Positions 4,298 to 58,486 of a DNA stretch of 64,000 bases are shown one piece after another. The DNA comes from an uncultured Thermodesulfobacteriota bacterium (lineage in GTDB: Bacteria; Desulfobacterota; WTBG01; CAIYCZ01; CAIRTM01). Both the position numbers and the translations under genes were made by a program. The notes under the pieces were generated by a model. That model was not told the DNA's origin. It did not search any database and saw only the letters and a program-made list of their open reading frames with translations. Each line of letters starts with the position of its first letter. The stretch's first letter is position 1. Location: positions 64,013 to 128,012 of the forward strand of contig CAZMHH010000002.1 in assembly GCA_964566035.1 (NCBI GenBank), in the 5' to 3' direction.

Positions 4298-4300
4298 TTT

Positions 4301-5507: not shown

Positions 5508-5586
5508 TATTTTTTCTTCTTTGTTTTGTCAGCCTGAAAAACTCAAAACCCCTAGCGGCTAAATTTTAAACTTTTATGGATATGTT

Positions 5587-5826: not shown

Positions 5827-5829
5827 AAG

Positions 5830-11940: not shown

Positions 11941-11942
11941 AA

Positions 11943-31548: not shown

Positions 31549-31559
31549 ATCTTTTTAAT

Positions 31560-33488: not shown

Positions 33489-33585
33489 AATCTGATTTCT
33501 TTGAAGAGGTTAATTATCAAATATAATTGAAACAACTCCAGGTACGGTCGAAAATATGTATCTGGAGTTGTTTTTTGTTTTCAAA

Positions 33586-34578: not shown

Positions 34579-34612
34579 TTTTGTATCTCCTATATTTTTT
34601 TGTGGTCAACAG

Positions 34613-41687: not shown

Positions 41688-42352
41688 TCTTTCCTCCTTA
41701 AACTCTATTTAGTTGTAGAATTATTGTTTTGCCTTTTTTAAAAAGGCTTTATAAAATGTATATGTAAAATATTTTTGACACAGCAGTTTTTATGCCAAAG
41801 GTTATTTACGGGGCTTAATGTGGTGTTAATGAGAATCTATAATATTAAATTAAGTCAATATGGTTGTCAATAAAAAAATAAAAACAATTGGTTTTGACAT
41901 TATGTCATAGTGGTTTAGGTTTATATAATTAATTCAAATAACATTTAAATAGCTATACTTTAGCAAACAGTTGTTTTTATATAATTCCGTTAGTAAGTAT
42001 ATTGTATGTCAACATGACAATAGAGAGCAGAAGGAAAAAGCATTCAAAAGCAAAGATTAATAGACAAAAGGTCGAATATCTGTTAGTTTTGCAATTACAA
42101 AAATCAATATATTAACAGATTAAAAACTCTTGAGGTTTATGGCTCTGTTTTTGCAAATATTATATTATGCTGCAGTTAGCAGTGAAGCAGAAAGTGAGTG
42201 GATGAGTTAAAACACAGGGGGTAAGTTACAGGATAAAACTGAAACCATAAATAATTAATCTTTAATAATTTTTTGCTTTTGCTTAACAGTTCTTACCTGT
42301 TATCATGCTTTTGCTGCCAACTACGAACAAAATTCTAGTACAAAGGATTTTC

Positions 42353-43801
42353 ATGGAACAAAAAGATACCACAAGCTCTTTTCTCCACCCTCTTGAGGAG
42401 TCTGTTCTCTCTCTTGCCACAGGAAAAGTTGACCAGCCACAAGAGTTGTCGGAGACATTTTTCAAAGAAACTGCTGAAGAAGAGCCTGACAGACCATATA
42501 CACTGCAAACTGACAAAATTCACACAATTTCAGAAAACATTAATGAATGTATGAGATTTGTCGGAAGCAAAGTGCTTGGCAGGAACGAAACCATCAAACA
42601 GACCTTTATTGCCCTGATAACAGGTGAGCACCAGCTTTTTATAAGCAGAACCGGAATGGCAAAATCGCTGCTTGCCAGGCAGATATTTTCCTGCTTTGAT
42701 GGTGCTCAGGTTTTTGAAAAACAGCTTACAAAAGATACTATGCCAGAGAACCTTTTCGGCGCCTATGATATCGAAGCAATGAAAAAGGGAAAGATGATTC
42801 ACAATGTGGAAGGTTCGCTTGTTCTTTCACACTTTGCTTTTCTTGATGAAATATTTGATGCAAATGATATGCTTCTCAGGTCTCTTCTTTCACTTCTAAA
42901 CGAAAAACAGCTTGTAAACGGTGAACAGATTGTTTACTCAACCCTTCACAGCTCTATTGCAGCGGCAAACTATATAAGGGTTACAGAGATACTCGAGGCT
43001 GTTATTGACAGGTTTCTCTATAAAAGTTATATACCTGAAAACAAGGAGCTGTTTTTTCAGTATTCGATTGACCAGATTTATCAGGAACAGTTCGGAAAGG
43101 TTTATGTTCCTGATAAGCGTTTAACATTGGGAGAGCTTGCTCTGATTAAAAAAGTTATTCAGAGCAAGCAGATAGAAATACCTGGATATGTTCTTTTTCT
43201 CAAGAATTATGCTGTAAAAAGGTATATAGAAGAGACAAGAAGCACTGTATCAGATAAAAAGGCATTTACCATAAGTGACAGGACGAGCGTAAAAAGTCAG
43301 GACACACTAAGAGCTTCAGCAATACTTGACGGAAGACTCAATGTTGATGAGAAAGACCTTGACAGTCTTATATATATTCTCTGTACAATTGGAAGAGAGG
43401 ATGAAAAGACAAGGCTAAACAAGATAATAGGTGCTGCCAAAAACTATTTCAGACAGGATAAAGCCCTTCTTGAAAGTTGTTTTGATGCAATAGCTGTTTT
43501 AAATATTATCAAAGCTTCCAGGACAAACAGGTCTTTAAAGTCAGATACGGGTTTCAAGCAGGTTATCAAAAGACTTGAATGTTTTCATAAAAAAGAAGGT
43601 TCTGTTTTAAAAGAATATTTCAGCAGACTTAAAAACACCCTTATGGGTTTTTCAAAAGACACATTCCTTCCTGAAACATTTTCATTGCTTGAAAATATAA
43701 GCGAAGTTGCCTTAAAAAATGCCAAGTCAAAGGAGACAAGGGAACTTATCTCTGGTTTCAGGGAAGAAGTTTTTTACGAAAAAAAGCTTATGAAAATTTA
43801 A
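42353..43801 (+). CDS. RavA-like MoxR-family AAA+ ATPase
   Basis: Start set at the ATG at 42353 (an AAGGA Shine-Dalgarno 8 nt upstream) rather than the track start at 42305. Walker A ITGEHQLFISRTGMAKSLLARQI and Walker B AFLDEIFDANDMLLRSLLSLLNEKQLVNG follow the RavA pattern G..FLLGPPGIAKSL.AR / FLDEIWKA...LL..INER.F.NG. Confidence 0.75.
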   Translation: MEQKDTTSSFLHPLEESVLSLATGKVDQPQELSETFFKETAEEEPDRPYTLQTDKIHTISENINECMRFVGSKVLGRNETIKQTFIALITGEHQLFISRTGMAKSLLARQIFSCFDGAQVFEKQLTKDTMPENLFGAYDIEAMKKGKMIHNVEGSLVLSHFAFLDEIFDANDMLLRSLLSLLNEKQLVNGEQIVYSTLHSSIAAANYIRVTEILEAVIDRFLYKSYIPENKELFFQYSIDQIYQEQFGKVYVPDKRLTLGELALIKKVIQSKQIEIPGYVLFLKNYAVKRYIEETRSTVSDKKAFTISDRTSVKSQDTLRASAILDGRLNVDEKDLDSLIYILCTIGREDEKTRLNKIIGAAKNYFRQDKALLESCFDAIAVLNIIKASRTNRSLKSDTGFKQVIKRLECFHKKEGSVLKEYFSRLKNTLMGFSKDTFLPETFSLLENISEVALKNAKSKETRELISGFREEVFYEKKLMKI

Positions 43802-43807
43802 GCAAAA

Positions 43808-45382
43808 ATGCATACCTCGTCAATTCAGTCACACCTTGATTTTTATTCCCCTCGCTGCACAGCGGATAGCCCCGGATCTCTGCTTTTTACACCTGAGCTT
43901 ATGAAAATATTCTACATAGCCAGGGTAATAATGAGTGAAACAAGCAGTCACAGAGTAAAAACCCAGGTAGCCCCGCTTTTTAACAGAGAAAAGATATTTG
44001 AAGCAAGGGATGATAAGCCTGAAAAAAAACCCCCTTTTTTAAAAAAAAACAGTTTTGACAATTTCATAAACATAGAACGGATAAACTCTTTTGGGGATAT
44101 AGCAAGGCTTCTTCCAAGAGAACATTTAATCTATTCTGAAACAGTCTTTTATAAAAAACTTGCCAACCGTGAACTCATAAAAATCAGTTATGAAGGTTTT
44201 GCCGGAGATGTAACCTCTGTTGACAGTTTTGTTAACACAATGGAAACAGAGCTTGAAAGAAGCCAGAAGGTATATCTTCTTTATGACAACTCCACTTCGA
44301 TGAACGGAGAAGATTTTAAGAAGCTTTTCATCTCAAAATCAATAGCAATAGAATATTTAAGACGTGTTTCAGGAGAAAACCCGCAAATATACTTCCGCAC
44401 ATTCCACAGTGAAGTGGGCAATCTTGTAAAAGCAAGCACAAAGGAGGAGGTCTACAGTCTTACAGATACCATAGTAAGGATTACAACCGGGGGGGGCAGG
44501 ATAACCAGAATCGGAGACGCGGTCATGCAGGCTATTGAAGACATAAAAAGCGACCCTGATCTTGAAGATGCTGAAATACTGGTGATAACCGATGGTTTTG
44601 GTCCTATACCAAAAGATCTCAAGGAAAGACTTGGCAGGATTAAATTGCATATAATACTAATCCCCGACCTTGATATTGAAAAAATACTAAAACTTTATCC
44701 TGACAGGACAGCATGGGAAAGAGGAGGAAATGATGGAAACAGGCCCATGCCCCAGTTCTGGAAATACTACAGTTCAAATCCGCCGCCTGCTGTTATTGAC
44801 GGTGATGATCTTTTTCAGGATAATAAACGTTCTTACAGGACAGCATCAAAAAGCGTTAAGGAGCTTAAAGCACTTGAAATACTTCAGGGTTTAAATCAGA
44901 TATATCTTCTTCAGGAAGTTTGTGAAAATTTTATCTTTGTTGTTATAACATCCCTGATGGATGAACATTTTGAAATATCCGTTAATGATGTTGGGGGTTT
45001 TGAGAGTTTTGTTGAAGAACTGAAAATAAGGCTAAATGATCCAATGACAAACGAGGAAAAACTGAAATTTCTTCAGACCGTCAACTTTCTGCTCAATTTT
45101 TTTCAGATAGCCATGGTTAATTCACAGGAGAAGGAAACAAAGAAAAGAATAAAAAAACTTATCTCCGCTCTTGAACTCCTGCAGTCATCCATACTTGAGG
45201 ATCCCTGGCTTCAGTCAGTCTTAAAGGCTGACAACATAAAAATGGAGATAAAACTGAGCAGTGCGCTGAAACAGACCAAAAAAGAAGATATGCCGCTTTT
45301 TGAAGCGCTTTTCTATCTGATGAAGATTTTATGGCAGAATCTATGTTTTTATTTCAAGCGGATAGGTAAACATAAGATATAG
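43808..45382 (+). CDS. von Willebrand factor A (vWA) domain protein, ViaA-like partner of the RavA-like ATPase
   Basis: 524 aa. MIDAS motif YLLYDNSTSMNG (DxSxS) with downstream T and D residues (ITRIGDA...VITDG). Separated from the ATPase gene by only 6 nt. Confidence 0.7.
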   Translation: MHTSSIQSHLDFYSPRCTADSPGSLLFTPELMKIFYIARVIMSETSSHRVKTQVAPLFNREKIFEARDDKPEKKPPFLKKNSFDNFINIERINSFGDIARLLPREHLIYSETVFYKKLANRELIKISYEGFAGDVTSVDSFVNTMETELERSQKVYLLYDNSTSMNGEDFKKLFISKSIAIEYLRRVSGENPQIYFRTFHSEVGNLVKASTKEEVYSLTDTIVRITTGGGRITRIGDAVMQAIEDIKSDPDLEDAEILVITDGFGPIPKDLKERLGRIKLHIILIPDLDIEKILKLYPDRTAWERGGNDGNRPMPQFWKYYSSNPPPAVIDGDDLFQDNKRSYRTASKSVKELKALEILQGLNQIYLLQEVCENFIFVVITSLMDEHFEISVNDVGGFESFVEELKIRLNDPMTNEEKLKFLQTVNFLLNFFQIAMVNSQEKETKKRIKKLISALELLQSSILEDPWLQSVLKADNIKMEIKLSSALKQTKKEDMPLFEALFYLMKILWQNLCFYFKRIGKHKI

Positions 45383-45414: not shown

Positions 45415-46737
45415 TTATTCAACTTCAGGAAGTTCTAAAATCTGGCCTGATTCACCACTGCTTAATGTGCCGACATTCTTCAATTTTCTGTTGATTAAGT
45501 TTGTTCTTGTTGTCCTCAAAGTACTCAACGAATTTGATGCAGTATTTAACTGCTTGTCAACCAGCTCAAGCTGGGAAGCAAAGTTGCTGAACTCAGTCTT
45601 AACAGCTTCCAGAATTTTCCACACCTCACTGCTTCTTTTTTGTACTGTCAAAGTTCTGAAACCCATTTGAAGACTGTTCAAAAGAGCTGATAATGTGGTT
45701 GGCCCAGTGACGGTAATGCGATAGTTGCGTTGTAGTGTTTCAAAAAGACCAGGGTGTCTTAATACCTCTGCATATAAACCTTCCACCGGCAAAAACATGA
45801 TTGCAAAATCAGTCGTATGAGGCGGGTCAATATATTTGGAGTTTATAGCTTTTGCAAAACCTTCCACAGATTTAAGTAACATTTTCTGTTCGGTTTCAAT
45901 TTTTAACCTGTCGCCATCCTCATAAGCTGCAAGCAGTTTCTGATACCCTTCTATTGGAAATTTTGAGTCGATAGGCATCCAGACTTCATTGTCTGAATCC
46001 CTGCCCGGCAGTTTTACTGCAAACTCTACGTTTGCCTGACTGCCCTTTTTTGTTGCGACATTTTTTGCATATTGATCTGGAGTCATTATCTGTTCCAAAA
46101 TGTTTTCCAGTTGATACTCGCCCAGCACCCCGCGTGTTTTAACATTTGAAAGCACTTTTTTTAAGTCTCCTACGCCTGTGGCAATATTCTGCATTTCCCC
46201 CAAGCCTTTGTGAACCTGTTCCAGCCGTTCGCTGACGAGTTTGAAAGACCGGCTGATCCTGTTTTCGAGGGTTTCCTGAAGTTTTTCGTCAACAGTTTTT
46301 CTCATTTCAGACAATTGAAGAGAGTTGTCATCCCTGATTGTTTTGAGCTGTTTTTCAACAGTCTCTTTGACCTCTTTTATACTGTCAGTTGCCTGCCGGT
46401 TCAGCTCAGACTGTTCTTTGCTGAAGTCTCCGAATTTAAGCCTTATCAAATCATTTAACTCCTTGATATTAGCAGTAAAGCTTTCCTCAAATGATTTAAG
46501 AGACTTTGCAAGTTCATCCCTGCTAGATTTGGCGCTCTCATTTGTCTCAATTCTGATGCTATGGAATTCTTCCTTAACAGCTTTCTCGGTCCTTTCAAGG
46601 TTTGTGTCAAACCTTAAAATGGATGTCTTAACATCTCCCAAATGAGGCTCTATATCAATCTTTGTTTTTTTTACAAACACAATTACAAAATTGATAATCC
46701 CGATAATAATTAAGACTATGAGCAGTATTTCAATCAC
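45415..46737 (-). CDS. rmuC: DNA recombination protein RmuC-family (N-terminal TM, coiled coil, C-terminal RmuC nuclease-like domain)
   Basis: 440 aa. TM helix MIEILLIVLIIIGIINFVIVFV. Long heptad-like region. C-terminal ...VEFAVKLPGRDSDNEVWMPIDSKFP...AIMFLPVEGLY... matches the conserved RmuC core. Confidence 0.7.
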   Translation of the reverse strand: MIEILLIVLIIIGIINFVIVFVKKTKIDIEPHLGDVKTSILRFDTNLERTEKAVKEEFHSIRIETNESAKSSRDELAKSLKSFEESFTANIKELNDLIRLKFGDFSKEQSELNRQATDSIKEVKETVEKQLKTIRDDNSLQLSEMRKTVDEKLQETLENRISRSFKLVSERLEQVHKGLGEMQNIATGVGDLKKVLSNVKTRGVLGEYQLENILEQIMTPDQYAKNVATKKGSQANVEFAVKLPGRDSDNEVWMPIDSKFPIEGYQKLLAAYEDGDRLKIETEQKMLLKSVEGFAKAINSKYIDPPHTTDFAIMFLPVEGLYAEVLRHPGLFETLQRNYRITVTGPTTLSALLNSLQMGFRTLTVQKRSSEVWKILEAVKTEFSNFASQLELVDKQLNTASNSLSTLRTTRTNLINRKLKNVGTLSSGESGQILELPEVE

Positions 46738-47307
46738 CTGCTTTTCCCCTTCCTGTATTAATTAAAAATAGCTCTTGTTATTTAAGCAGTTGCTTGCTAC
46801 CTTTTTGTCACTTGTCCTAACTTTTGAACAAGACTAATTACTTTATAGAATATCAAATATGAACAAAAATACAATCTTGTTAAAAAAATACGGGGGAGCA
46901 TTTCTTTTGAAATTAACAGAAAGTTATGTGCAGGATACACTTTATGTAACGACAACCTTTCAAACTATGCAATTACCATAATAGATTCCGAAATCCTGTT
47001 CATAATACGCTTACCCTTTGAACTTAACCGCCCCCGAATATACCGACGTATACCATGGAGGAAGAAATGAGTGGTTTTTATAATAAAAAAGGGGGGAACT
47101 CAGAGTTATCTCTTTTCGCTTGACAAAAACCATCTTTCCATATTTAATTAATACTAATTATTCTTTAATAAATAATGGGCTAAATACCATTAGCTTTTAT
47201 GTTTAGTAAAAAAACAGTTCTTTTAGTCACAACCGATATTTCCCGTTAAAAACAGTATGTTTTAGATTAAGTAGAAATGCTTATCATTATAGAGGTTTAT
47301 ACCTGTT

Positions 47308-47418
47308 ATGAAAAAGTCTTATAGCATTAAATTTAAGATATGGTTTAGCATAGGAATTGTTGTAGCCGGTTATGTTCTATCGGTTTTTGTAGGTGCTGTT
47401 ATGTCAGCCGGCATGTAA
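47308..47418 (+). CDS. Small ORF (36 aa: MKKSYSIKFKIWFSIGIVVAGYVLSVFVGAVMSAGM) 160 nt upstream of the radical-SAM/SPASM gene; candidate precursor/leader peptide or small membrane protein
   Basis: Found by reading the sequence; it is below the ORF-track cutoff. Has a Lys/Trp/Tyr-rich N-terminus and a hydrophobic C-terminus. No cysteines. Purely positional evidence. Confidence 0.25.
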   Translation: MKKSYSIKFKIWFSIGIVVAGYVLSVFVGAVMSAGM

Positions 47419-47576
47419 GTTCAACTCAACAAGTCCACAGAAATCCTATATCCTATTGCCATAGCTGCCAGAGAAACTCTTAACATCTTATTGAAATCTG
47501 TCGGTTACAAAAGCGTATAGAAAAAGAAATAAGTTAAAATTATCAAAATTAGACTGGAAAAGACAGGATTAATGAT

Positions 47577-48740
47577 ATGTCCTTAAATTTTGAAAAAGAA
47601 CCGCCCGTTTCTGAAAATCAATCCAAGAATAAGTCGGATGTCCTAAAAAAAATATATATTGAGCCCACAAATGCCTGCAACCTTTCATGCAAAACCTGCA
47701 TACGCAATGTATGGGAAGATGAGACAGAAGGCATGATGGACAGAGATATATTTGAGGCTTTAATTTATGGACTTAAAGAATTTCCTGATGTACAGACACT
47801 GGCTTTTGCAGGCTTTGGCGAACCTCTTATGCATCCGGATTTTTCAGAAATGGTCAGAAAAGCAAAATCAAATGGTCTTTGTACAGAGGTAACAACCAAT
47901 GCCATGCTTCTTACCCGGCATCTGGCGCAAAACATTGTTGAGGCTGGCATTGATCAGTTGGTTGTCTCAATTGATGGAACATCGGCAGAAAGTTTCGGCG
48001 ATGTGAGAGAAGGCGCTTCTTTTGAAAAAGTTATTGAAAACGTACGTGAGTTTTCAAGGCTCAGTGAATACGGATCCGGACAACATGCAGTTATAGGAAT
48101 TGAGTTTGTGGCAATGCGCAGCAATATTAATGAACTTCCCGGCCTTCAAAATGTTGCTAAGCAGATAGGCGCAAACTTTATAATTGTAAGCAATGTTCTT
48201 ATCTACTCCCCAGAGCTTCAAAATGAGGCTCTCTACCATATCAAAGCTACTGCCAATAAAGGAAAGGAGACCACCCTCACTCCGCGCTGGATACTCCCAA
48301 AGATTGATTTCAACAATAAAACCCAGGAGCCTCTATCCAAAATCATGCGCACTCAGAAAAATATAAGCTTTCTTGACCATGACCTTGAAGACAGGAACAA
48401 TTACTGTCCATTCATAAATGCCGGGGCTATGGCTGTATCCTGGAAGGGAGATATAAGTCCGTGTCCTGCCCTTCTGCACTCCTACACCTGCTTTGTACCG
48501 GAGAGACAAAAAAAAATACATTCATACCTCTGCGGGAATCTTGCTGAAAAATCCCTGAATGAAATATGGAATGAAAGCAGATATGCTGCTTTTCGTAAAA
48601 GAGTAAGAGAGTTTGACTTTCCTCCATGCACAGACTGCAGCTGTGAGCTTTCAAAAACAAATAAGGAGGACTGTTATGGAAATCCCTTTCCGGTCTGCGG
48701 AGACTGCCTGTGGGCGAGAGGGATAATAAGGTGTGCATGA
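47577..48740 (+). CDS. Radical SAM enzyme with C-terminal SPASM (auxiliary [4Fe-4S]) domain
   Basis: 387 aa. Radical-SAM cluster motif NACNLSCKTC (Cx3Cx2C) and a GFGEPL glycine-rich SAM motif. C-terminal Cys-rich SPASM region (CPFINAG...CPALLHSYTC...CGNL; CTDCSCELS...CYGNPFPVCGDCLWARGIIRC). Confidence 0.85.
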   Translation: MSLNFEKEPPVSENQSKNKSDVLKKIYIEPTNACNLSCKTCIRNVWEDETEGMMDRDIFEALIYGLKEFPDVQTLAFAGFGEPLMHPDFSEMVRKAKSNGLCTEVTTNAMLLTRHLAQNIVEAGIDQLVVSIDGTSAESFGDVREGASFEKVIENVREFSRLSEYGSGQHAVIGIEFVAMRSNINELPGLQNVAKQIGANFIIVSNVLIYSPELQNEALYHIKATANKGKETTLTPRWILPKIDFNNKTQEPLSKIMRTQKNISFLDHDLEDRNNYCPFINAGAMAVSWKGDISPCPALLHSYTCFVPERQKKIHSYLCGNLAEKSLNEIWNESRYAAFRKRVREFDFPPCTDCSCELSKTNKEDCYGNPFPVCGDCLWARGIIRCA

Positions 48741-49453
48741 GTTAGCAAATTAGCTGGTACTAAAAGATGTTTGTGCTGTAGTGTTATCCGCTAAATATGA
48801 CTTGAGTCATTATTAATTATTGATATAACAAAAAGATATTTTCATGACCTTTTATTAAAACCGTGGACAGACAAATTGAGCAGGAAGAAAAGAAAAAATA
48901 TCTATTATAAATATTTGCAATAATTCAAAATAACTTAATTAATAACGGCATAAAAATTATTGCCGCAGTTTTTAGGAATTTGTTTCAGAGAAACAGATAA
49001 TCTTAAATTTAACACCCTCGCCTAAATATTATGACTGTGTTCAAAAAAAAACTTGACATTGGAAATATATTATAATATTTGTGAATATAAGCAGGACAAA
49101 AAGCTTTAGATGTTACGTTCCTGAGTCGGGAGAATATTTAAAACATTAAAGCCGACATTCAGTAGTTTGTAAATCAGTTTCTTCCGTGGTCATATTTTTA
49201 TAATATTATATTTGCAGAGCACTTTATAATAAGAAGGCAAATATAACAGTGACCGGTCTTTATGTTTGTTCTTGAAAATCGAAAAATTGCTTTTGTCTAT
49301 TGCGTCACAGCTTTTTTAAGGCTTTTATCAAAAAAAAATTGTATTTTGTTTTGAGTTATGATAAAAATTAATTTCGCCAGGCAAACATCTTGATTCTTAT
49401 GCTAAAATTGATGGATTATTTTAATTACTTAACTGCGGTTTGCTCTAATTCAA

Positions 49454-50587
49454 ATGACAACAGACACATCAGATAGACTTGCAAGTATTTACAGAGAACA
49501 TTTTTACTCCTGCATCCAGTGCGGAAAATGCACAGGCGGATGCCCTATTTCTGTTGTTTCCCCTCTTTTTAATATCAGACGCCTTCTCTACGAAGCACTG
49601 AACACCAAAGGAGAAGAGATTGCCTACCACAAGGAGATGTTATGGGACTGTAGCACATGCACAACATGTGTTAAACGCTGCCCCAAAGATATAGACCCTG
49701 TTGAGCTGATAGTAAGCATGCGGAGCGTGCTTGTTGAAGATGGTCAACTCCCCCCTAAAATCAGAGACGTTTTAAAAAGCATATCTATCCGCGCAAACCC
49801 CTGGAACATAGGGCAGGAAAAAAGGTCTGAGTGGACAGAAGGTTTGAATATCAAAAACATAGCAGATGCTGAAGTTCTCTACTATGTAGGCTGTACCACC
49901 GCTTTTGATTCAAGACTCCATAAGGTTGCAAAATCTCTTGCAACAGCTCTGCAAAAGGCAGGTGTTAATTTTGGAACCTTTGGCAACGATGAGGTCTGCT
50001 GCGGAAACGAGATAAGACGAATGGGAGATGTATGGTCTTTTGATGCTCTCAAAGAGATGAACATGGAAATGTTCAAAATGTATCCGATTAAACAGATTAT
50101 TACTACCTCGCCTCACTGCTACAATACTTTCAAAAATGAGTATACTGAGCTGGAAATAGATGTCAAACACTACACCCAGGTTGTTGCTGATCTAATCAAG
50201 AATAAACAGCTTAAATTTACAAAAAAATTCGAAAAAACTGTAACCTATCACGATCCCTGTTTTCTTGGACGACAGAATCAGATATTTAAGAAACCGAGGG
50301 CAATACTAAAAAGAGTCCCAGGCATAAAGTTTGTTGAGATGGACAGGTCAAGGGAAAGAGCGCTCTGCTGTGAGGGCGGTGGCGGAAGAATGTGGGTTGA
50401 AGCACATGAAACACAGCAGAGAACTGTAACTATCAGAATACAGGAGGCTATAGATGCAGGTGCGGAGATAATTGCCGTTGCCTGTCCGTTCTGTCTCTTA
50501 ACCCTTGAGGATGAAGTAAAAAAGCAGGGGCTTGAAGACAAAATTCAGGTTCTTGACATAATGGAAATTGTAAATAAGGTTATATAG
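49454..50587 (+). CDS. HdrD-like heterodisulfide-reductase subunit (HdrC-type 2x[4Fe-4S] N-domain fused to HdrB-type 2xCCG domain)
   Basis: 377 aa. Ferredoxin motifs CIQCGKCTGGCP and CSTCTTCVKRCP. CCG domains (VCCGNEIRRMGD, LCCEGGGGRMWVEAHE). Confidence 0.8.
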   Translation: MTTDTSDRLASIYREHFYSCIQCGKCTGGCPISVVSPLFNIRRLLYEALNTKGEEIAYHKEMLWDCSTCTTCVKRCPKDIDPVELIVSMRSVLVEDGQLPPKIRDVLKSISIRANPWNIGQEKRSEWTEGLNIKNIADAEVLYYVGCTTAFDSRLHKVAKSLATALQKAGVNFGTFGNDEVCCGNEIRRMGDVWSFDALKEMNMEMFKMYPIKQIITTSPHCYNTFKNEYTELEIDVKHYTQVVADLIKNKQLKFTKKFEKTVTYHDPCFLGRQNQIFKKPRAILKRVPGIKFVEMDRSRERALCCEGGGGRMWVEAHETQQRTVTIRIQEAIDAGAEIIAVACPFCLLTLEDEVKKQGLEDKIQVLDIMEIVNKVI

Positions 50588-50602
50588 CAGGAATTTTATT
50601 CG

Positions 50603-52576
50603 ATGAGTAAGATAAAAACAGGTGTATATATATGTCACTGCGGTGTAAATATTACATCTACCATTGATATAGACAGGTTGACTCAGTTTGCAGAGGAACT
50701 GCCAAGTGTATCCGTCGCCAAGCAGTATATCTACCTCTGTTCTGATCCCGGTCAGGAACTCTTAAGAAAAGATATTAAAGAGCTTGGACTGAACCGTATT
50801 GTTGTCGCCTCCTGCTCACCTCGTATGCATGAACCCACGTTCAGGAAGGTAATGAGAAGTGCAGGGTTAAACCCTTATTGTCTTGAGATTGCAAATATCA
50901 GGGAACAGTGCAGTTGGGTTCATGAGGATAAAGATAAAGCGACCCGGAAAGCTGAATCAATACTTGCAGCATCAGTTGCAAAAGCCCGTCTGCTTGAGCC
51001 TCTCACAGAAAAGCAGGTGGATGTTACCCCTTCAGCACTTGTAATAGGTGCCGGAATTGCCGGTATTCAGGCAGCCCTTGATATTGCTGATAATGGATTT
51101 AAGGTCTATCTTGTTGAAAAAGAGCCGAGCATCGGGGGACATATGGTACAGCTTGACAAAACCTTTCCAACACTTGACTGTTCAGCCTGCATACTGACCC
51201 CAAAAATGTCTGATGTTGGAAACCATCCAAATATTGAACTCCACTCATACTCCGAAGTAGAGGAAGTAAAAGGTTTCATCGGGAACTTTAAGGTAAAAAT
51301 AAAGAAGAAACCAAGATATATTATTGAAGAAAAATGCAACGCATGCGGGCAATGTGTATCATACTGCCCCGTAGAAATACCCGATCCGTTCAACATGAAT
51401 CTGTCCACAATGAAGTGTCTCTATATTCCTTTTCCTCAGGCAGTGCCTGCAAGCTATGTGATTGATCCTGAACACTGCAGATATACCCTGCGAAGAGAGT
51501 GCAAACAGTGCGAACCGGTCTGCAAGGAACTGAATGCAATTGACCTGAAACAGAAAGAAAAATTTATTGATATAGAGGTTGGTACAATAGTTGTGGCAAC
51601 AGGGTTTGATACCTTTGACCCCAAACTTAAACCAGAGTTTGGATACGGTTATTATCCAAATGTTATAACAGGGCTTGAGTTTGAACGTCTCTCATCAGCC
51701 TCAGGTCCCAATCTTGGAGAGTTGAAAATTCACGGTAAAAAACCAAAAGATGTTGTTTTTATCCAGTGTGTTGGATCAAGGGATAAGACGGTTGGAAATG
51801 AATACTGTTCAAGGGTCTGCTGCATGTATACAGCAAAGCAGGCACACCTTGTCAGGGAAAAAATTCCCGATGCCAATGTGACGGTTTTTTATATGGATGT
51901 CCGGGCATTTGGAAAAGGGTTTGAAGAGTTTTATGACAGAGTAAAACATGAAGGTATTGTATATCGAAGAGGAAATGTTGCTGATGTTTTCAGGAGAAAA
52001 GACCGCCTTGTAGTCCGTGCTGAAGATACGCTTATGAGTCAGCCCGTAGAGGTTGAGGCGGATCTTGTAGTACTTGCGGTTGGAATGGTTCCGGGCAAGG
52101 ACAGTGCCGCTCTTGCAAAAACCCTTAAACTCTCCAATTCTGCAGACAGGTTCTTCCTTGAAGCCCACCCCAAGCTAAGGCCTGTTGATACTGCTACAGA
52201 CGGTGTGTTTGTTGCCGGATGCTGCCAGGGACCCAAGGATATCCCTGACACTGTTGCTCAGGCAAGCGGAGCTGCTGCCAGGGCTTGTATACCGCTTTCA
52301 CAGGGAAAGGTTACAACTGAGGCTATTGTTTCCTTTGTAGATGAGCGGGTATGCCGGGGATGTGCGCTCTGTGTTGATGCATGTCCTTATGAGGCTATTG
52401 AACTTAAAATAATTGACCGTGCGGGAAAACAGGTTCAGGTTGCATGGGTAAACGAGGTTCTCTGCAAAGGATGCGGCACCTGTGTGGCTGCATGTAATTG
52501 CGGAGTTATGCAGCAGAGATCCTTTAATGATCATCAGATACTGTCAATGATAGAAACGCTGAGTGAACAAATATGA
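50603..52576 (+). CDS. hdrA: Heterodisulfide reductase subunit A (FAD-containing, electron-bifurcating HdrA-type)
   Basis: 657 aa. N-terminal Cys cluster (YICHCG...C..C). FAD/Rossmann motif VIGAGIAGIQAALDIADNG. Inserted ferredoxin motif CNACGQCVSYCP. Thioredoxin-reductase-like CSRVCCMY. C-terminal 2x[4Fe-4S] CRGCALCVDACP and CKGCGTCVAAC. Confidence 0.9.
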   Translation: MSKIKTGVYICHCGVNITSTIDIDRLTQFAEELPSVSVAKQYIYLCSDPGQELLRKDIKELGLNRIVVASCSPRMHEPTFRKVMRSAGLNPYCLEIANIREQCSWVHEDKDKATRKAESILAASVAKARLLEPLTEKQVDVTPSALVIGAGIAGIQAALDIADNGFKVYLVEKEPSIGGHMVQLDKTFPTLDCSACILTPKMSDVGNHPNIELHSYSEVEEVKGFIGNFKVKIKKKPRYIIEEKCNACGQCVSYCPVEIPDPFNMNLSTMKCLYIPFPQAVPASYVIDPEHCRYTLRRECKQCEPVCKELNAIDLKQKEKFIDIEVGTIVVATGFDTFDPKLKPEFGYGYYPNVITGLEFERLSSASGPNLGELKIHGKKPKDVVFIQCVGSRDKTVGNEYCSRVCCMYTAKQAHLVREKIPDANVTVFYMDVRAFGKGFEEFYDRVKHEGIVYRRGNVADVFRRKDRLVVRAEDTLMSQPVEVEADLVVLAVGMVPGKDSAALAKTLKLSNSADRFFLEAHPKLRPVDTATDGVFVAGCCQGPKDIPDTVAQASGAAARACIPLSQGKVTTEAIVSFVDERVCRGCALCVDACPYEAIELKIIDRAGKQVQVAWVNEVLCKGCGTCVAACNCGVMQQRSFNDHQILSMIETLSEQI

Positions 52577-52995
52577 GCACATTTGAACCAAACATTATAG
52601 CCTTTCTTTGTAACTGGTGTTCTTATGCCGGGGCGGATTTAACAGGCACAAGCCGCATACATTATCCCTCTAACCTTAAAGTAATTAGGGTGATGTGCAC
52701 TGGAAGACTAAATCCTCTTTTTGTGGTACAGTCTCTCAGGCAGGGAGCAGACGGTGTTCTTATTTCAGGGTGTCACCCCGGAGAATGTCATTACATGAAA
52801 GGCAATTATCTTGCAAGGAGAAGGTTTATACTTATGCGAAAACTCCTTGAGTTTGTAGGGATAGACCCGTTAAGACTTCGGATGAGCTGGGTGTCCGCCT
52901 CTGAAGGCAAGAAGTTTGCCGACGTTGTAACAACTGTTACTGAAGACATAAGAAAAATTGGACCAATGCCTTCTTTTATTAGAGATGTAAAATGA
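52573..52995 (+). CDS. MvhD-like [2Fe-2S] protein (methyl-viologen-reducing hydrogenase delta subunit homologue; FlxD-type)
   Basis: 140 aa. Begins ..IIAFLCNWCSYAGADLTG, the MvhD signature, with further Cys (CTGR...GCHPGECHY). Overlaps the hdrA stop (ATGA). Confidence 0.85.
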   Translation: MSTFEPNIIAFLCNWCSYAGADLTGTSRIHYPSNLKVIRVMCTGRLNPLFVVQSLRQGADGVLISGCHPGECHYMKGNYLARRRFILMRKLLEFVGIDPLRLRMSWVSASEGKKFADVVTTVTEDIRKIGPMPSFIRDVK

Positions 52996-53963
52996 ATATT
53001 CAAAAAATAAGGGAAGAAGCCCTCAAAGCAATAAGTGATAAGGATGTAAAATACCTTATAGGCTATAAACAGGGGAGTTACGGATTCAGGATATCCCCGG
53101 TATTTATCAGAAACAAGGATGAAGTGGAAAGCCTTGTTTTCAATCCGCTCTGCCAGTTGGGACTTGTAACATATCTTACAAAGGATGAGGTAATCCCGAT
53201 TGTTGATGAGGCAAAAAAGCATGCTTCAAAAATTGCCATACTTGTAAGAGGATGTGACTCAAGGGCGATAAATCAACTGGTTGCAGAAAAGGGGATACCA
53301 AGAGAAAGTCTCTATATTATCGGAATTCCATGCACAGGCGTGATAGAACTTAAGAAAATTGAGAACAAATTCCCGGGTGTATCATCAAATGCGGATGTTA
53401 AAGAAGAGGGTGATAATTACATTATTACGGTTGACGATCAAACCCATACTGTGCCGAAACAGGAACTGCTGGCGGAACTTTGCAAGACCTGTCCCCATCC
53501 CAGTCCTCTTAGTTATGACAAGCTTGCTGGAGATGAAATAAAATCCAAAACAGATACTTTTGAAGACATAAAGCTCTGGGAAGAAAAACCTGCTGAAGAG
53601 AGATTTGACTTCTGGCTGAATCAGTTTGACCGATGCATAAGATGTTATGCATGCAGGAATGCCTGTCCTCTCTGTTACTCTATTGTCTGTACACTGGAAG
53701 ACACTCAGTGGGTAAAACGCTCAAGCACAACTTCTGAGAATTTTATGTTTCATATGACCGCCGCCTTTCATCTTGCAGGAAGGTGTATAAACTGCGGGGA
53801 GTGTGAGCGGGTATGCCCTATGGAACTTCCCATTATGAAACTCAACCGCAAACTTGAAAAAGATGCGCGAGAGCTGTTCGGACATGAATCAGGCAAGACT
53901 GCTGATACAAAAACCCCCCTTACAAGCTTTGAATTAGAAGACAAAGAAGATTTTATATTGTAA
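52992..53963 (+). CDS. Iron-sulfur protein with two [4Fe-4S] ferredoxin motifs (FlxC-like)
   Basis: 323 aa. Motifs CIRCYACRNACPLCYS and CINCGECERVCP in the C-terminal half. Overlaps the preceding stop (ATGA). Assignment is by context. Confidence 0.55.
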   Translation: MNIQKIREEALKAISDKDVKYLIGYKQGSYGFRISPVFIRNKDEVESLVFNPLCQLGLVTYLTKDEVIPIVDEAKKHASKIAILVRGCDSRAINQLVAEKGIPRESLYIIGIPCTGVIELKKIENKFPGVSSNADVKEEGDNYIITVDDQTHTVPKQELLAELCKTCPHPSPLSYDKLAGDEIKSKTDTFEDIKLWEEKPAEERFDFWLNQFDRCIRCYACRNACPLCYSIVCTLEDTQWVKRSSTTSENFMFHMTAAFHLAGRCINCGECERVCPMELPIMKLNRKLEKDARELFGHESGKTADTKTPLTSFELEDKEDFIL

Positions 53964-54097
53964 AATAAGTCTATGGATGATTGGCTATAGCAGAAAAACC
54001 GGGGGTATGGACCAGCAGTCAGGGGGAGAAGAAAAACAGGCTAAAGCAATAAGCTGATAGCTTTTCGTATTTTATCTATTTTAGGTATTCAATATTT

Positions 54098-55120
54098 ATG
54101 AAATCGTATTTACTCCACCAGGATAAGTTAGGCGACTTCTTAAAAACGCTTGATGAATACAGGGTTTTTGCACCTGTTAAAAGAGACACTGTCACCGTGC
54201 TCCAGGTTTACCAAAACCCTCAGGATACACCTCTTGACCTCGCATCTCAGCCTCAGATTACAAAGAAAAGCATTTTCCCCCATACAGAGGAACTTTTCAA
54301 GTTTGACAAAGGAGCAGCTATAGCAGATTCATCCAAGAGCCTTTTATCAAATAAGACAGTTGTATTTGGAATAAGACCCTGTGATGCTGTAAGTTTTCTT
54401 ACAATTGATCCTGTGTTTGACAATGATTTTCCTGACCCCTACTATATAAACCGCAGAAAGAGCACAATATTAATTGCCCTTGCCTGCAACAAGTCTTTTG
54501 CAAACTGTTTCTGTACATCATTGGGCAAGAGCCCTTTTTCAACTGAAGGTGTCGATGTTTTATTTGTGGACTTGGGCAGCAAATTTCTGGTGGAACCGGT
54601 TTCAGAAAAAGCTGAAGATATAATAAAAAAAACATCGTCGATTCTTGAACCTGCAACAGATGAAGATATTGAAGAGAAACAGAGAATAGCTGAGTCTGCA
54701 TCAAAATCTGTCAAACGGAGCATTGATCTTAAAGGTATGCCAGAGAAACTCTCAGAACTTTTTGAGCATCCTGTCTGGAAGGAGCTTTCCTCAAAATGTA
54801 CTGGATGCGGAATCTGTACATATACCTGCCCGACCTGCTACTGTTTTGACATACAGGATGAAGCTGCAATGCACAACAGGGGGAGAAGGGTAAGGATATG
54901 GGATTCATGCATGTATGATGAATATACCCGCCATGCTTCAGGACACAATCCAAGGCCAACAAGAACAGAAAGACTTAAAAACAGAATATACCACAAGTTT
55001 AAATACCATGTGGATAACGTGGGCATGTTCGGGTGTGTCGGGTGTGGCAGATGCATCTCATTGTGCCCGTTTAATGTAGATCTTATTGAAACACTCACAG
55101 CGGTAAAGAGTATTGCATGA
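54098..55120 (+). CDS. Iron-sulfur subunit, sulfhydrogenase-beta / AsrA-like (FlxB-like)
   Basis: 340 aa. C-terminal motifs CTGCGICTYTCPTCYC and CVGCGRCISLCP. Overlaps the next gene by 4 nt. Confidence 0.6.
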   Translation: MKSYLLHQDKLGDFLKTLDEYRVFAPVKRDTVTVLQVYQNPQDTPLDLASQPQITKKSIFPHTEELFKFDKGAAIADSSKSLLSNKTVVFGIRPCDAVSFLTIDPVFDNDFPDPYYINRRKSTILIALACNKSFANCFCTSLGKSPFSTEGVDVLFVDLGSKFLVEPVSEKAEDIIKKTSSILEPATDEDIEEKQRIAESASKSVKRSIDLKGMPEKLSELFEHPVWKELSSKCTGCGICTYTCPTCYCFDIQDEAAMHNRGRRVRIWDSCMYDEYTRHASGHNPRPTRTERLKNRIYHKFKYHVDNVGMFGCVGCGRCISLCPFNVDLIETLTAVKSIA

Positions 55121-55941
55121 AAAACTTCTACATCCCGGAAATAGCAACCGTTACTGATGTCCGCGAGGAAGCCTCCGGGCAGAGACCAATTAAGACCTTC
55201 AGGGTTGAGCTTGCTGATGGTAAGGATTTTAATCAAAAACCTGGGCAGTGTGCCATGATAGGGGTTCTTGGCATTGGCGAAAGTATGATATCAATTGCAT
55301 CATCTCCTACAAAAAAAGGTTATCTTGAGTTCAGTATCATGAAGCTCGGCAAGGTGACTTCTGCTTTTCATGCTCTTGAACCGGGTGATGCCATAACAAT
55401 AAGGGGTCCTTATGGCAACGGATTTCCGTTAGAAGAGTGGAAGGGTAAAAACATAGTTACAGTGGGGGGTGGAATAGGTCAAGCACCGCTCCGTCCCATT
55501 ATACAGTATATCCTTGATAACAGAGCCGACTTTGGGACTCTTGATGTAATCTATGGAGCCAGAAGTTCAAATGATTTATGTTTTAAGCATGAGCTTTTTG
55601 ATCTTGAAAAAAGCCCTGGCTTGAATGTTCATCTTTCAATAGATGCTGCCGAGCCTGAATGGACACGGTTTGTAGGATTCGTGCCTTCAAATCTTCTCAA
55701 TGTTAAACCGAAGCCTGAAAACACTTTAGCTGTTACCTGCGGACCAGGGGTCATGATAAAATATGTAATAAAAAACTTTATTGAACTTGGTTTTGCAGAT
55801 GATCAGATTTTCACTACACTTGAAAACAGGATGAAATGCGGGGTGGGCATCTGCGGCAGATGTAATGTTACAAACCTTTATGTCTGCAAAGACGGCCCTG
55901 TTTTTAATTACAGCGTGCTGAAAAATCTGTCGGAATACTGA
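55117..55941 (+). CDS. FAD/NAD(P)H-binding oxidoreductase subunit with C-terminal [2Fe-2S] (sulfhydrogenase-gamma / AsrB / PyrK-like; FlxA-like)
   Basis: 274 aa. FAD-binding RxYS-like segment, NAD-binding GGGIGQAPL, and C-terminal CGVGICGRC. Confidence 0.75.
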   Translation: MKNFYIPEIATVTDVREEASGQRPIKTFRVELADGKDFNQKPGQCAMIGVLGIGESMISIASSPTKKGYLEFSIMKLGKVTSAFHALEPGDAITIRGPYGNGFPLEEWKGKNIVTVGGGIGQAPLRPIIQYILDNRADFGTLDVIYGARSSNDLCFKHELFDLEKSPGLNVHLSIDAAEPEWTRFVGFVPSNLLNVKPKPENTLAVTCGPGVMIKYVIKNFIELGFADDQIFTTLENRMKCGVGICGRCNVTNLYVCKDGPVFNYSVLKNLSEY

Positions 55942-56158
55942 AATAGCAATTTAGCTTGTAGCTGATAGTTTGCAGTAAATCCTTTTTTCCCGGTCGTGAT
56001 TGTAGTTATAGTCAAGGCTGTGCTCAGCAGTCAGATATCAGAATAGAAAAAGCATTTGTAAGTGTTAGTGTAAAAAGGCTTTTAATATTTTACTACGGGC
56101 TTAATTGCTATTTTTTTTATTCACCTTTTAATTTTGTATTAAGAAAGGAGGAACTCTT

Positions 56159-57988
56159 ATGAACGGATGGGCGGGAAAAATCTTAAGAGTTGATCTAACA
56201 AACGGGACTTTTAAAGATGAAGATTTAGATTTAGAACTTGCAAAAAACTATGTGGGGGGAAGAGGGCTTGCAACAAAGATGCTCTTTGATGAGATAGACC
56301 CTAAAATTGATGCTTTGAGTCCGGAAAATAAACTTATTTTTGCATCTGGTCCCTTAACAGGTACAGGCGCTATTGCAGCGTCACGTTATATGGTAATAAC
56401 CAAATCGCCTCTGACCGGCTACATTGCCTGTTCAAACTCCGGTGGTTATTTCGGACCTGAGATGAAATACGCAGGCTATGACATGTTTATATTTGAAGGA
56501 AAATCTCCCGAGCCTGTATATCTCTTCATAGCCGGCGATACCATCGAGCTAAGACCGGCAACAGAGCTCTGGGGCAAGACCACGCATGAAACAGAAGATG
56601 CAATTCGTGAAACTATCGGAATGCCCTGGAAGGGTGAAATGTTTAGAATTGCAAGCATTGGCCCTGCAGGAGAAAAACTTTCCCGTGCAGCCTGTATTAT
56701 TAATGATAAGGCACGGGCTGCGGGCAGATCTGGGGTTGGAGCTGTGATGGGCTCCAAGAATTTAAAAGCAATAGCAATAAAGGGCTCAAAACCTATAAAT
56801 ATTGCCCAACATGAAAGATTCAGGGAAATTGTCCGTGAAAACATTCAGAAAAACCGCTCTGATGCTGCAAAGGTAACAGCTCAGGCGCTTCCTGTATTTG
56901 GCACCTCAATACTTGTAAACATAATAAATGAAAGCGGAATACTGTGTACCAGAAACTTTCAGGCAGGCACGTTTGAAGGAGCAGGTAAAATAAGCGGTGA
57001 GACAATTGTGGATACAATCCTTAGAAGAAGAAGGGGATGTTTTTCATGTCCCATGTCCTGCGGAAGGGTTACAGAATCAATAGACCCCAAATTTCCAGGG
57101 CATGGAGAGGGGCCGGAGTATGAGACTGTTGCACTTTTTGGAGCTTCATGCGGTGTTGATAACCTGTCTGCTGTTGCAAAGGCTAACTTTATATGTAACG
57201 AACTTGGTATTGATACAATTGAGGCTGGAAATATTGTTGCCTGTGCTATGGAACTCTATGAAAAGGGTTATCTGCCTGAGTCAGATATTGGTTTCAAGGC
57301 AAACTTCGGGGATGCAGAAGCACTCGTAAAACTGACTGAGTTGATGGGTAAAAGAGAGGGCATTGGCGATCTGCTTTCTGAAGGCGGCCATGCCCTGGCA
57401 GAAAAATATGGACATCCGGAGCTATTTATGGGTGTAAAAAATCAAGGGCTCCCGGCTTATGATCCAAGAGGTGTTCAGGGCATGGGATTGAGTTATGCAA
57501 CATCAAACAGAGGCGCCTGTCATGTGAGAAGCTATCTTATTGCTATTGAAATACTCGGGGTAAATGTTAAGGTTGATCCTTTTACAACAGAAAACAAAGC
57601 ATCTCTGTTAAGAAATTTCCAGGATTTTACAGCAGTGATTGACTCCGCGGGGCTTTGTCTATTTGTAAGCCTTGCAGAAGGTTATGGTCAGGATGATGTT
57701 GCCGAGCTTCTTACCGCTGTAACCGGAGAGACCTATACAAAAGATGATGTTATGGCAATAGGTGAGAGAATCTGGACTCTTGAACGTCTCTTCAATATAA
57801 AAGCCGGCCTTACCAAGGCGGAAGACACTCTTCCCCCAAGGTTTCTATCAGAGCCCCTGCCTGATGGACCTGCAAAGGGTAAGGTATGTAAGCTTGAAGA
57901 GATGCTTAAAGAATACTATCAGCTCAGGGGATGGGATGACAATGGCATTCCGCCTGCTGATAAATTGTCACAGATAGGTTTGAACTGA
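56159..57988 (+). CDS. aor: Aldehyde:ferredoxin oxidoreductase (tungsten/molybdopterin AOR family)
   Basis: 609 aa. N-terminus MNGWAGKILRVDLTNG is the classic AOR start. [4Fe-4S] motif CFSCPMSCGR. Large C-terminal pterin-binding domains. Strong RBS AAAGGAGG. Confidence 0.9.
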   Translation: MNGWAGKILRVDLTNGTFKDEDLDLELAKNYVGGRGLATKMLFDEIDPKIDALSPENKLIFASGPLTGTGAIAASRYMVITKSPLTGYIACSNSGGYFGPEMKYAGYDMFIFEGKSPEPVYLFIAGDTIELRPATELWGKTTHETEDAIRETIGMPWKGEMFRIASIGPAGEKLSRAACIINDKARAAGRSGVGAVMGSKNLKAIAIKGSKPINIAQHERFREIVRENIQKNRSDAAKVTAQALPVFGTSILVNIINESGILCTRNFQAGTFEGAGKISGETIVDTILRRRRGCFSCPMSCGRVTESIDPKFPGHGEGPEYETVALFGASCGVDNLSAVAKANFICNELGIDTIEAGNIVACAMELYEKGYLPESDIGFKANFGDAEALVKLTELMGKREGIGDLLSEGGHALAEKYGHPELFMGVKNQGLPAYDPRGVQGMGLSYATSNRGACHVRSYLIAIEILGVNVKVDPFTTENKASLLRNFQDFTAVIDSAGLCLFVSLAEGYGQDDVAELLTAVTGETYTKDDVMAIGERIWTLERLFNIKAGLTKAEDTLPPRFLSEPLPDGPAKGKVCKLEEMLKEYYQLRGWDDNGIPPADKLSQIGLN

Positions 57989-58027
57989 AAAAATATTATT
58001 AAACAATAATATGAGGAGGAATCTCTC

Positions 58028-58486
58028 ATGAAAACAATAGTAAAAAAGATACAGATGGATTATGACAAATGCACAGGTTGTCGCCACTGCGAAATTGCAT
58101 GCGCTCTGGCGCACACTGAGACAAGTTCAGTAGACCCCAACCAGTCAAGAATAAAGGTTTTTGTGGATCTGGATTCTGGCTACAGCTTTCCTGTAATTTC
58201 AGGCCCCTATACAGATGCAAAGTGTACATCCAAGAACTACGTCATTATCGGCGGACAGAAATTCAATACATGTATGCTCTGCAGGGTTGCATGTCCTGAA
58301 AAACCCTTCTTCTTTGAGCCAGGATCAGAGGTTCCATTAAAGTGTGATCTCTGCGGTGATCCACCGGATCCTTCATGTGTTAAATGGTGTACAAGCGAAG
58401 CACTCTCTATGATAGAAGTTGAAGAGGACGTTGAAGAGGAAACAGTTGAAGAGACTGATTCCGACTTTGATGATGATGAGGAATAA
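58028..58486 (+). CDS. Polyferredoxin-like [4Fe-4S] electron-transfer protein with acidic C-terminal tail (AOR-associated)
   Basis: 152 aa. Motifs CTGCRHCEIAC, CMLCRVACP and CDLC...C..WC. C-terminal EEDVEEETVEETDSDFDDDEE. RBS GAGGAGG. Confidence 0.75.
   Translation: MKTIVKKIQMDYDKCTGCRHCEIACALAHTETSSVDPNQSRIKVFVDLDSGYSFPVISGPYTDAKCTSKNYVIIGGQKFNTCMLCRVACPEKPFFFEPGSEVPLKCDLCGDPPDPSCVKWCTSEALSMIEVEEDVEEETVEETDSDFDDDEE

Follow-up and report, generated by a model that had tools for sequence, protein, structure and literature searches.

We have found that a gene for a radical S-adenosylmethionine (radical-SAM, or rSAM) enzyme with a SPASM domain, located at 47577..48740 on the forward strand of a 64-kb stretch of DNA from an uncultured Thermodesulfobacteriota bacterium (contig CAZMHH010000002.1; the whole 64,000 nucleotides are referred to here as the window), belongs, as judged from its sequence, to an uncharacterized sister clade of the family TIGR04317 that has no curated model of its own. 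This one clade appears to occur in two settings, namely loci that encode a tungsten-type aldehyde:ferredoxin oxidoreductase (AOR) together with MoaD- and MoeB-like proteins, and ArsR-controlled arsenite-efflux islands with thioredoxin and CcdA genes. Its commonest home appears to be the arsenic-resistance island. The enzyme encoded in the window may be a trans-acting accessory or maturation factor for a tungsten-pterin AOR whose gene starts 7.4 kb past the rSAM stop codon, a proposal for which we find belief and doubt about evenly balanced. On its own the window gene is a modest find, and the pattern of contexts at the level of the family is the interesting part.

The open reading frame (ORF) of the rSAM gene is intact and specifies a protein of 387 amino acids (aa), and an AGGA Shine-Dalgarno-like motif (47565..47568, +) can be read 8 nt 5' of its ATG. 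Comparison with the 75%-identical orthologue on contig L003 gives a dN/dS of 0.13 at a saturated synonymous divergence (dS ~1.2, to be taken as at least 1.2), and by these measures the gene is real, functional and under purifying selection. Pfam recognizes three domains in the protein and nothing else: Radical_SAM (PF04055, 57.4 bits against a cut-off of 29.5), SPASM (PF13186, 53.1 bits against a cut-off of 21.5, residues 277-354) and Fer4_12. The radical-SAM [4Fe-4S] cluster motif, C34-x3-C38-x2-C41, is encoded at 47676..47699 (+), and its three cysteines are invariant in an alignment of 28 family members. Equally invariant in that alignment are ten cysteines of the C-terminal part of the protein (residues 277-387; 48405..48737, +), which comprises the SPASM domain and a family-specific Cys-rich tail; they are arranged as C277-x13-G291-x4-C296, C305, C351-x2-C354-x-C356-x9-C366, C374-x2-C377 and C386. 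The C-terminal signature NPFPVCGDCLWARGxxRCA is likewise kept across the 28 members, and PVCGDCLW and PCP[PA]L[LM]H[STA]Y were used as family-specific search patterns. We took as the hallmark of SPASM proteins the pattern CX9-15GX4C, a gap, CX2CX5CX3C, a gap and C, with two auxiliary [4Fe-4S] clusters. C277-x13-G291-x4-C296 conforms to it and the second block of cysteines is a variant, and on the Pfam score and the Cys pattern together the protein can be assigned to the SPASM subfamily. The cluster motif, the PF04055 match, the modelled core and the structural matches place it in the radical-SAM superfamily.

An AlphaFold2 model of the protein (predicted local distance difference test, pLDDT, 76.6; predicted template modelling score, pTM, 0.81) has a core of alternating β and α elements with pLDDT >85 over residues 21-210, a less confident Cys-rich tail and a stretch of pLDDT <50 at residues 1-16. 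The nearest solved folds identified by Foldseek are BlsE, SuiB, DesII, anSME, SkfB and BtrN (template modelling score, TM, ~0.55; 14-19% identity), PqqE is also among the matches, and a search of the PDB by sequence agrees with the fold matches. These are generic SPASM/twitch relatives that are uninformative on substrate. If the enzyme works as others of its superfamily do, the C34x3C38x2C41 cluster would cleave SAM reductively to yield a 5'-deoxyadenosyl radical, which would take a hydrogen atom from the substrate, and the ten invariant C-terminal cysteines would hold two, possibly three, auxiliary Fe-S clusters that may bind the substrate or carry an electron away.

The best NCBIfam match of the protein is TIGR04317 (W_rSAM_matur, 'tungsten cofactor oxidoreductase radical SAM maturase'), which has the same rSAM plus SPASM architecture and aligns with it end to end (299 bits against a cut-off of 380; E = 4.5e-89; model positions 3-348 of 349). 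Nine relatives, including the AOR-adjacent P0100, score 259-298 bits on this model. An exhaustive HMMER search over 1.84 billion cluster representatives returned 342 clusters at E <= 1e-30, and a scan of metagenomes for further close relatives, in the contig index of which the window protein itself is absent, yielded none above 49% identity. Those proteins from the HMMER search that do reach the TIGR04317 cut-off, with 401-443 bits, share no more than 33-39% identity with the window protein. When three of them served as the outgroup of a neighbor-joining tree, the window protein was united in one clade with 87 relatives in 200/200 bootstraps, and since members of TIGR04317 are this distant and fall outside that clade, we place the window gene in a sister clade. 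Within it, the window protein and the L003 orthologue form a clade of their own (200/200 bootstraps), which groups with a trio from ArsR-rSAM-ArsC-like loci (L008, L001 and L002) at 36% bootstrap support. In the public annotations examined, clade members are called 'radical SAM protein' or bear generic rSAM names. A sequence-only reading of this region had suggested that the enzyme may belong to the AOR-associated family TIGR04317 and had named searches with SPASM-subfamily models and phylogenetic placement as checks. TIGR04317 is indeed the best of the models; its cut-off is not reached, and the tree sets the protein beside the family and not within it.

TIGR04317 has its basis in gene neighborhoods that hold a tungsten enzyme of the AOR family, in many cases along with MoaD- and MoeB/ThiF-like genes, and 'maturase' in its name is a context-based label only. 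As that name implies, part of the clade to which the window protein belongs adjoins an AOR gene with MoaD/MoeB-like genes; the window gene differs in that it is not adjacent to an AOR gene and no MoaD or MoeB gene was found in the window, and most of the clade is linked to ars genes. The second NCBIfam match, TIGR04311 (rSAM_Geo_metal, 'radical SAM/SPASM family putative metalloenzyme maturase'; 251 bits against a cut-off of 400), shares the domain plan, but its model has 423 positions and the match is split into two stretches, far below the cut-off. SuiB/StrB, SkfB, PqqE, MftC and anSME have the fold and the auxiliary-cluster domain in common with the window protein, and the NCBIfam models for PqqE and MftC give weak matches to it. 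These peptide-modifying SPASM enzymes and anSME are nonetheless only as close as the Foldseek values given above, and the window protein has neither a RiPP recognition element (RRE), RiPP denoting a peptide made by the ribosome and modified after translation, nor a conserved precursor. We do not count the enzyme among the anSMEs, which are not among its listed NCBIfam matches and whose structural match to it is generic (14-16% identity); no sulfatase was found among the neighbors scanned. MoaA (GTP 3',8-cyclase), another rSAM enzyme, likewise has an auxiliary cluster in its C-terminal part, acts in pterin-cofactor biosynthesis and gives a weak match in both sequence and fold, but the window protein reaches only ~59 bits against cut-offs of 231-325, and the two differ in their C-terminal domains, MoaA having a single auxiliary cluster and lacking a SPASM motif. 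ArsS (arsenosugar) and ArsL (arsinothricin) are rSAM enzymes of ars operons, as are most relatives of the window protein; ArsL in particular has been described as a radical-SAM enzyme encoded in an ars operon (PMC8552651). These two accompany ArsM, whereas the islands of the clade carry ACR3, a low-molecular-weight (LMW) ArsC-like gene, thioredoxins and CcdA instead, and the ArsS model TIGR04167 gives the window protein 44 bits against a cut-off of 300, a similarity confined to the rSAM core. ArsS is, and ArsL probably is, a family other than that of the window protein.

We surveyed the genomic context of the clade at 80 species-representative loci and on several metagenome contigs, labelling neighbors from the Pfam matches that accompanied the contigs, from NCBIfam matches and from tblastn searches in which reference neighbors were the queries. 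An ACR3 gene, a PF03773 permease gene or an LMW ArsC-like gene lies within 5 kb of the rSAM gene at 43 of the 80 loci. ACR3 itself, whose identity TIGR00832 confirms (446 bits, cut-off 283), is found at 34, in 13 cases within 400 nt and on the same strand, and a further 6-7 loci have an ArsR-family gene next door only. The best match of the LMW ArsC-like proteins is the thioredoxin-type arsenate reductase model, at scores below its cut-off. Typical layouts are ArsR - rSAM - ArsC-like - ACR3 - permease (L001, L105) and, in L004, ArsR - permease - ArsC-like - thioredoxin - cyclopropane-fatty-acyl-phospholipid (CFA) synthase - ACR3 - rSAM - thioredoxin - CcdA/DsbD - CDF, and the gaps between island genes, which range from -4 to 234 nt, suggest operons. 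Five of six metagenome neighborhoods of homologues outside the window's own clade are metalloid-resistance islands as well, the sixth being linked to an AOR. An AOR gene lies within 5 kb at 19 of the 80 loci (within 400 nt and on the same strand at 10), two more loci end at a contig edge directly after a MoaD-like gene, and about 10 relatives have neither ars nor AOR neighbors. Approximately two thirds of the relatives that lack ars neighbors are AOR-linked. The co-occurrence with AOR genes that the sequence-only reading wished to see examined thus holds for about a quarter of the clade, while more than half of it resides in ACR3/ArsR islands.

The AOR-linked members form two separate groups within the clade. 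One, from Halanaerobiales, has the order rSAM-AOR-...-MoeB/ThiF and 200/200 bootstrap support, and the other, from Acidobacteriota, has the order MoeB-AOR-MoaD-like-rSAM and is nested among ars-linked deltaproteobacterial sequences. We note that a single Acidobacteriota chromosome, OY761556.1, has four or more paralogues from the clade (at ~4.80 and 4.97-4.99 Mb; L007/L029 and L038), one in a MoeB-AOR-MoaD-like-rSAM operon and three around an ArsR/ACR3 locus ~170 kb away. As a tightly packed member, the clade recurs in islands of ArsR, ACR3, LMW ArsC-like, PF03773-permease, thioredoxin, CcdA and CDF genes in Thermoleophilia, Syntrophales, Anaerolineae, Acidobacteriota and NC10, among other groups; the loci considered for this pattern are L001, L002, L004-L006, L008-L087 and L105-L107 (for example L004 2857-11273 and L105 5526-10245). 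In the metalloid-resistance islands of Syntrophales a CFA synthase gene (NF008686, 566 bits; L004 5343-6500 and L106 1278-2435) lies between the thioredoxin and ACR3 genes; Pfam methyltransferase matches alone would mislead here, and we rejected ArsM as an identity for this gene. We also note that in L008, a metagenome-assembled genome of Anaerolineae, a cluster of HdrD, HdrA, MvhD and Fe-S genes (about 1500-6000, minus strand) lies 4-8 kb from an ArsR-rSAM-permease unit (9200-12400), a proximity that loosely echoes the neighborhood of the window gene and may be a coincidence. Our search of the literature, the coverage of which was incomplete, found no paper in which ars islands are described as containing a SPASM radical-SAM gene.

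Downstream of the rSAM gene in the window is a co-oriented cluster of eight genes (49454..58486, +), identified by NCBIfam matches as encoding, in order, an HdrD/TfrB-like protein, an HdrA2-like protein, an MvhD-like protein, an Fe-S protein, a sulfhydrogenase beta/AsrA-like subunit, a gamma/AsrB-like subunit (FAD/NAD), the AOR and a polyferredoxin. Judged by its gene content, the cluster is a candidate for encoding an aldehyde oxidoreductase complex, either a flavin-based electron-bifurcating or an NAD(P)-coupled one. The AOR gene (56159..57988, +), the product of which is the candidate client of the rSAM enzyme, is of the canonical tungsten type and was correctly located by the sequence-only reading. 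In a PDB sequence search the AOR scores 709 bits with 9mqx_D and 676 bits with the Pyrococcus furiosus enzyme (1aor). We considered and rejected BamB, the class II benzoyl-CoA reductase, as an identity for this protein, since it scores only 228 bits (4z3w) against 676-709 for the canonical AORs. The sole close relative, which is 75% identical and is represented by contigs L003 and L104, has kept the order rSAM-hdrD-hdrA despite a dS of at least 1.2. In L003 the hdrD and hdrA genes follow immediately on the rSAM orthologue; their products share 90% and 94% identity with those of the window, and dN/dS for the two genes is ~0.02.

Several things speak for an accessory role toward the AOR: TIGR04317 is the best family match and the clade its sister group, the clade contains AOR-adjacent groups, a canonical AOR gene lies downstream in the same orientation, the close relative keeps the adjacency to the hdr-like genes, the gene is under purifying selection, and neither an ars gene nor a relic of one was detected in the window or the flanks. 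If a genome of several Mb is assumed to have a handful of AOR genes, then by our rough estimate only 1-2% of genes without a relation to AOR should be found 10 kb or less from one, and this low chance of proximity, together with the two-thirds share of AOR linkage among relatives without ars neighbors, makes an accessory role for the AOR the best single explanation. Published accounts of the Aromatoleum AOR name no maturation factors beyond the putative, MoaD-like aorD and aorE (PMC6365974), and another AOR paper notes how scant the knowledge of tungstopterin maturation is (PMC10816221). Several observations weigh against the proposal. The rSAM protein falls short of the TIGR04317 cut-off (299 against 380 bits), and 7.4 kb with six genes separates its gene from the AOR gene, whereas AOR-linked relatives have the two adjacent. 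The hdrD-like gene has a conserved upstream region of its own and is set off in the window by ~545 nt of extra spacer; the L003 and L104 contigs stop within hdrD or hdrA, short of any position at which an AOR gene could be seen, and no MoaD- or MoeB/ThiF-like match was obtained in the 64-kb window. More than half of the surveyed relatives (the 43 of 80 above) sit in metalloid-resistance islands, and the nearest relatives outside the window's own clade, which are 58-60% identical, are from ArsR-rSAM-ArsC-like-ACR3/permease islands. There are no convincing alignment columns that separate AOR-linked from ars-linked members, and our incomplete coverage of the literature brought up no experimental study of any TIGR04317-type enzyme.

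The main rival explanation, conceivable if rather unlikely in our judgment, is that the enzyme instead serves in arsenic or metalloid stress as the majority of its clade would, that its gene has become separated from an ars island in this organism and that the AOR lies nearby by coincidence. The island counts given above, the model-confirmed identity of ACR3, the ars-type metagenome neighborhoods with their operon-like gaps and the position of the window protein in the tree next to ArsR-rSAM-ArsC-like loci all favor such a role, although that sister relation has a bootstrap support of 36% only. When we used ArsR, ACR3, PF03773 permease, LMW ArsC-like, thioredoxin, DsbD and CDF sequences as tblastn queries against the 64-kb window, nothing was found at E < 1e-5. 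By its sequence the gene is a member of the clade (200/200 bootstraps), and it is not located in an ars island. Moreover, the flanks of the gene hold no ars relic, the close relative keeps adjacency to the hdr-like genes and not to ars genes, and an AOR gene is present in the vicinity. We think it quite improbable that the enzyme is an accessory to the hdr-like/flavoprotein module itself, or a housekeeping rSAM protein unrelated to its neighbors. Immediate adjacency to the hdrD-like gene is what is actually conserved, an Hdr-like cluster also accompanies the rSAM gene in L008, and relatives with neither ars nor AOR neighbors exist; against this, no relative outside the window's own clade adjoins hdr genes, the recurrent partners of the family are AOR/MoaD/MoeB and ars genes, and Hdr-like clusters are common in anaerobes. 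The AOR and arsenic roles need not exclude each other. A single chemistry in both settings would fit with the repeated switches of context and with the absence of residues that tell the two apart, and all members might share a single reaction on a sulfur- or dithiol(ene)-type target, the window gene being a copy recruited to the hdr/AOR cluster; we would regard this as unlikely. One can speculate that such a reaction makes, protects or repairs the pterin dithiolene that binds the metal, or a different vicinal dithiol open to attack by arsenite. In a speculative variant, the ars-linked members would be the equivalent, in anaerobic life, of the organoarsenical-detoxifying enzymes that depend on O2.

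A further alternative had been raised by the sequence-only reading, namely that the rSAM enzyme crosslinks a 36-aa peptide encoded upstream (47308..47418, +; MKKSYSIKFKIWFSIGIVVAGYVLSVFVGAVMSAGM), for instance through a Lys-Trp or other C-C link, and so forms a RiPP system. The facts of sequence on which this rested are correct: the ORF lacks Cys, has a hydrophobic tail and a Lys/Trp/Tyr-rich N-terminus, and ends 158 nt before the rSAM gene on the same strand, and SuiB, SkfB and PqqE are among the structural neighbors of the modelled enzyme, even if those matches are generic. Nevertheless, the ORF is of a length to be expected by chance. In the 839-nt spacer that contains it there are four ORFs of at least 36 aa, of which it is the shortest, compared with 2.3 +/- 1.5 expected from a first-order Markov simulation of the spacer (P = 0.20), and its Shine-Dalgarno-like GAGG is 13 nt from the ATG. 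It is not conserved: the 265 nt available upstream of the 75%-identical orthologue (L104) contain no matching ORF and no similarity to the window beyond random, and a conserved small upstream ORF is absent from all of about 90 relatives, whose upstream neighbors are ArsR, ACR3, MoaD-like or DsbD genes. When the peptide was compared by tblastn with 1.69 Mb of relative-bearing loci, the best E was 0.14, to hydrophobic stretches within membrane-protein genes. Pfam found nothing in the ORF, and the ORF together with its read-through had no match among 5.8 billion proteins. We also considered and rejected the ORF as an N-terminal remnant of a sensor or membrane protein, the 70-aa read-through query having no homologue. 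On the side of the enzyme, Pfam detects no RRE/PqqD-like domain; the CX3CX2C motif begins at residue 34, so the 33 residues ahead of it leave no room for an N-terminal RRE domain, and no PqqD-like neighbor was found among the genes scanned. With neither a conserved adjacent precursor gene nor an RRE/PqqD-like domain, a RiPP system is scarcely credible here, and we judge the ORF to be a chance ORF in what would be the divergent rmuC/rSAM promoter region rather than a precursor peptide. Conservation of the small ORF upstream of orthologues was the check proposed for the RiPP role, and the result for L104 refutes that role.

These results remove a speculative RiPP system and replace the description of the gene as an 'orphan' with a concrete placement and a candidate client, the downstream AOR. 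The older description was fair in the sense that no sulfatase, pqq or mft (mycofactocin) gene, and no MoaD/MoeB or ars gene, is found among the neighbors examined. More broadly, the clade is a recurrent and apparently operonic part of ACR3/ArsR islands and yet has no curated model. If it contributes to metalloid tolerance, a radical, oxygen-independent step would be added to arsenic biology, and if its members share one reaction in both settings, they would represent an unrecognized oxygen-independent component of arsenic resistance in anaerobes. The clade might also reveal what 'tungsten enzyme maturases' actually do.

The rSAM gene lies between two AT-rich non-coding spacers, as the sequence-only reading described. 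The first (46738..47576; 839 nt, 31.8% GC, with 15-29 stops per frame) separates it from the divergent upstream neighbor rmuC (45415-46737, minus strand) and presumably holds the promoters of both genes; the second (48741..49453; 713 nt, 28.1% GC) separates it from the hdrD-like gene. They are the longest intergenic gaps in the window, have 14-29 stops in each of the six frames and compare with a GC content of 41% for coding sequence. No second copy of either spacer was found in the 64-kb window, and a mobile element or repeat was rejected as their origin, there being no meaningful repeat either. Relics of neighbor genes (ArsR, ArsC or other) in the flanks were rejected as well, the best E of ~0.002 from tblastn of 2,989 neighbor ORFs from related loci against both flanks being noise for that number of queries. 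The TTGACA-17-TTTAAT match proposed as a promoter at ~47119 can be read at 47120..47148 (+), but it lacks the A at position 2 of the -10 element and was missed by our consensus scan, and promoter-like matches are no commoner than chance in the region (12 in 46600-49600 against 10.6 +/- 3.3 in shuffled sequences). A riboswitch or other structured leader, such as a Moco/Tuco RNA, was rejected: Rfam at gathering and permissive thresholds returned only a 16.8-bit chance match inside a coding region, and the leader at 47419-47580 folds no better than its shuffles (z = 0.53).

The gap between the rSAM gene and hdrD is 168 nt in the orthologous loci L003 and L104 compared with 713 nt in the window, and alignment attributes the difference to an extra AT-rich stretch of about 545 nt (~48755-49315) that is specific to the window and missing from both. 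This stretch is devoid of coding potential and contains TTGACA at 49053-49058 with TATAAT 12 nt further on. A three-way alignment shows that the ~140 nt directly upstream of the hdrD-like gene (49316..49453, +) are common to the window, L003 and L104. This conserved block contains AAAAAAATTGT(A/T)TTTT ... GTT(A/G)TGATAAAAAT, and is likely to hold a separate hdrD promoter, in which TGATAAAAAT would be a TG-extended -10-like element. A scan of 48741-49453 found no terminator-like site. The conserved upstream region of hdrD and the extra spacer argue against co-transcription, and we infer that rSAM and hdrD are two adjacent transcription units and not one operon; the rSAM gene would then be transcribed from its own promoter, outside the hdr-like/AOR operon.

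Elsewhere in the window, a 563-aa ORF (22253-23944) has no Pfam match. At 28673-35425 (minus strand) there is another electron-transfer module, in which a 608-aa ORF without a Pfam match adjoins genes for a multihaem cytochrome c3/c7-like protein, a single membrane protein with NarI-like, Fe-S and CCG (HdrD/DsrK-like) parts, and EtfAB; it is preceded by a sigma-54 two-component pair (35833-39368). Lastly, at 42305-45382 (+) a gene for a MoxR-type AAA ATPase with a bpMoxR domain is followed by one for a 524-aa protein without a Pfam or NCBIfam match, and the two may be part of a MoxR-vWA-type system.

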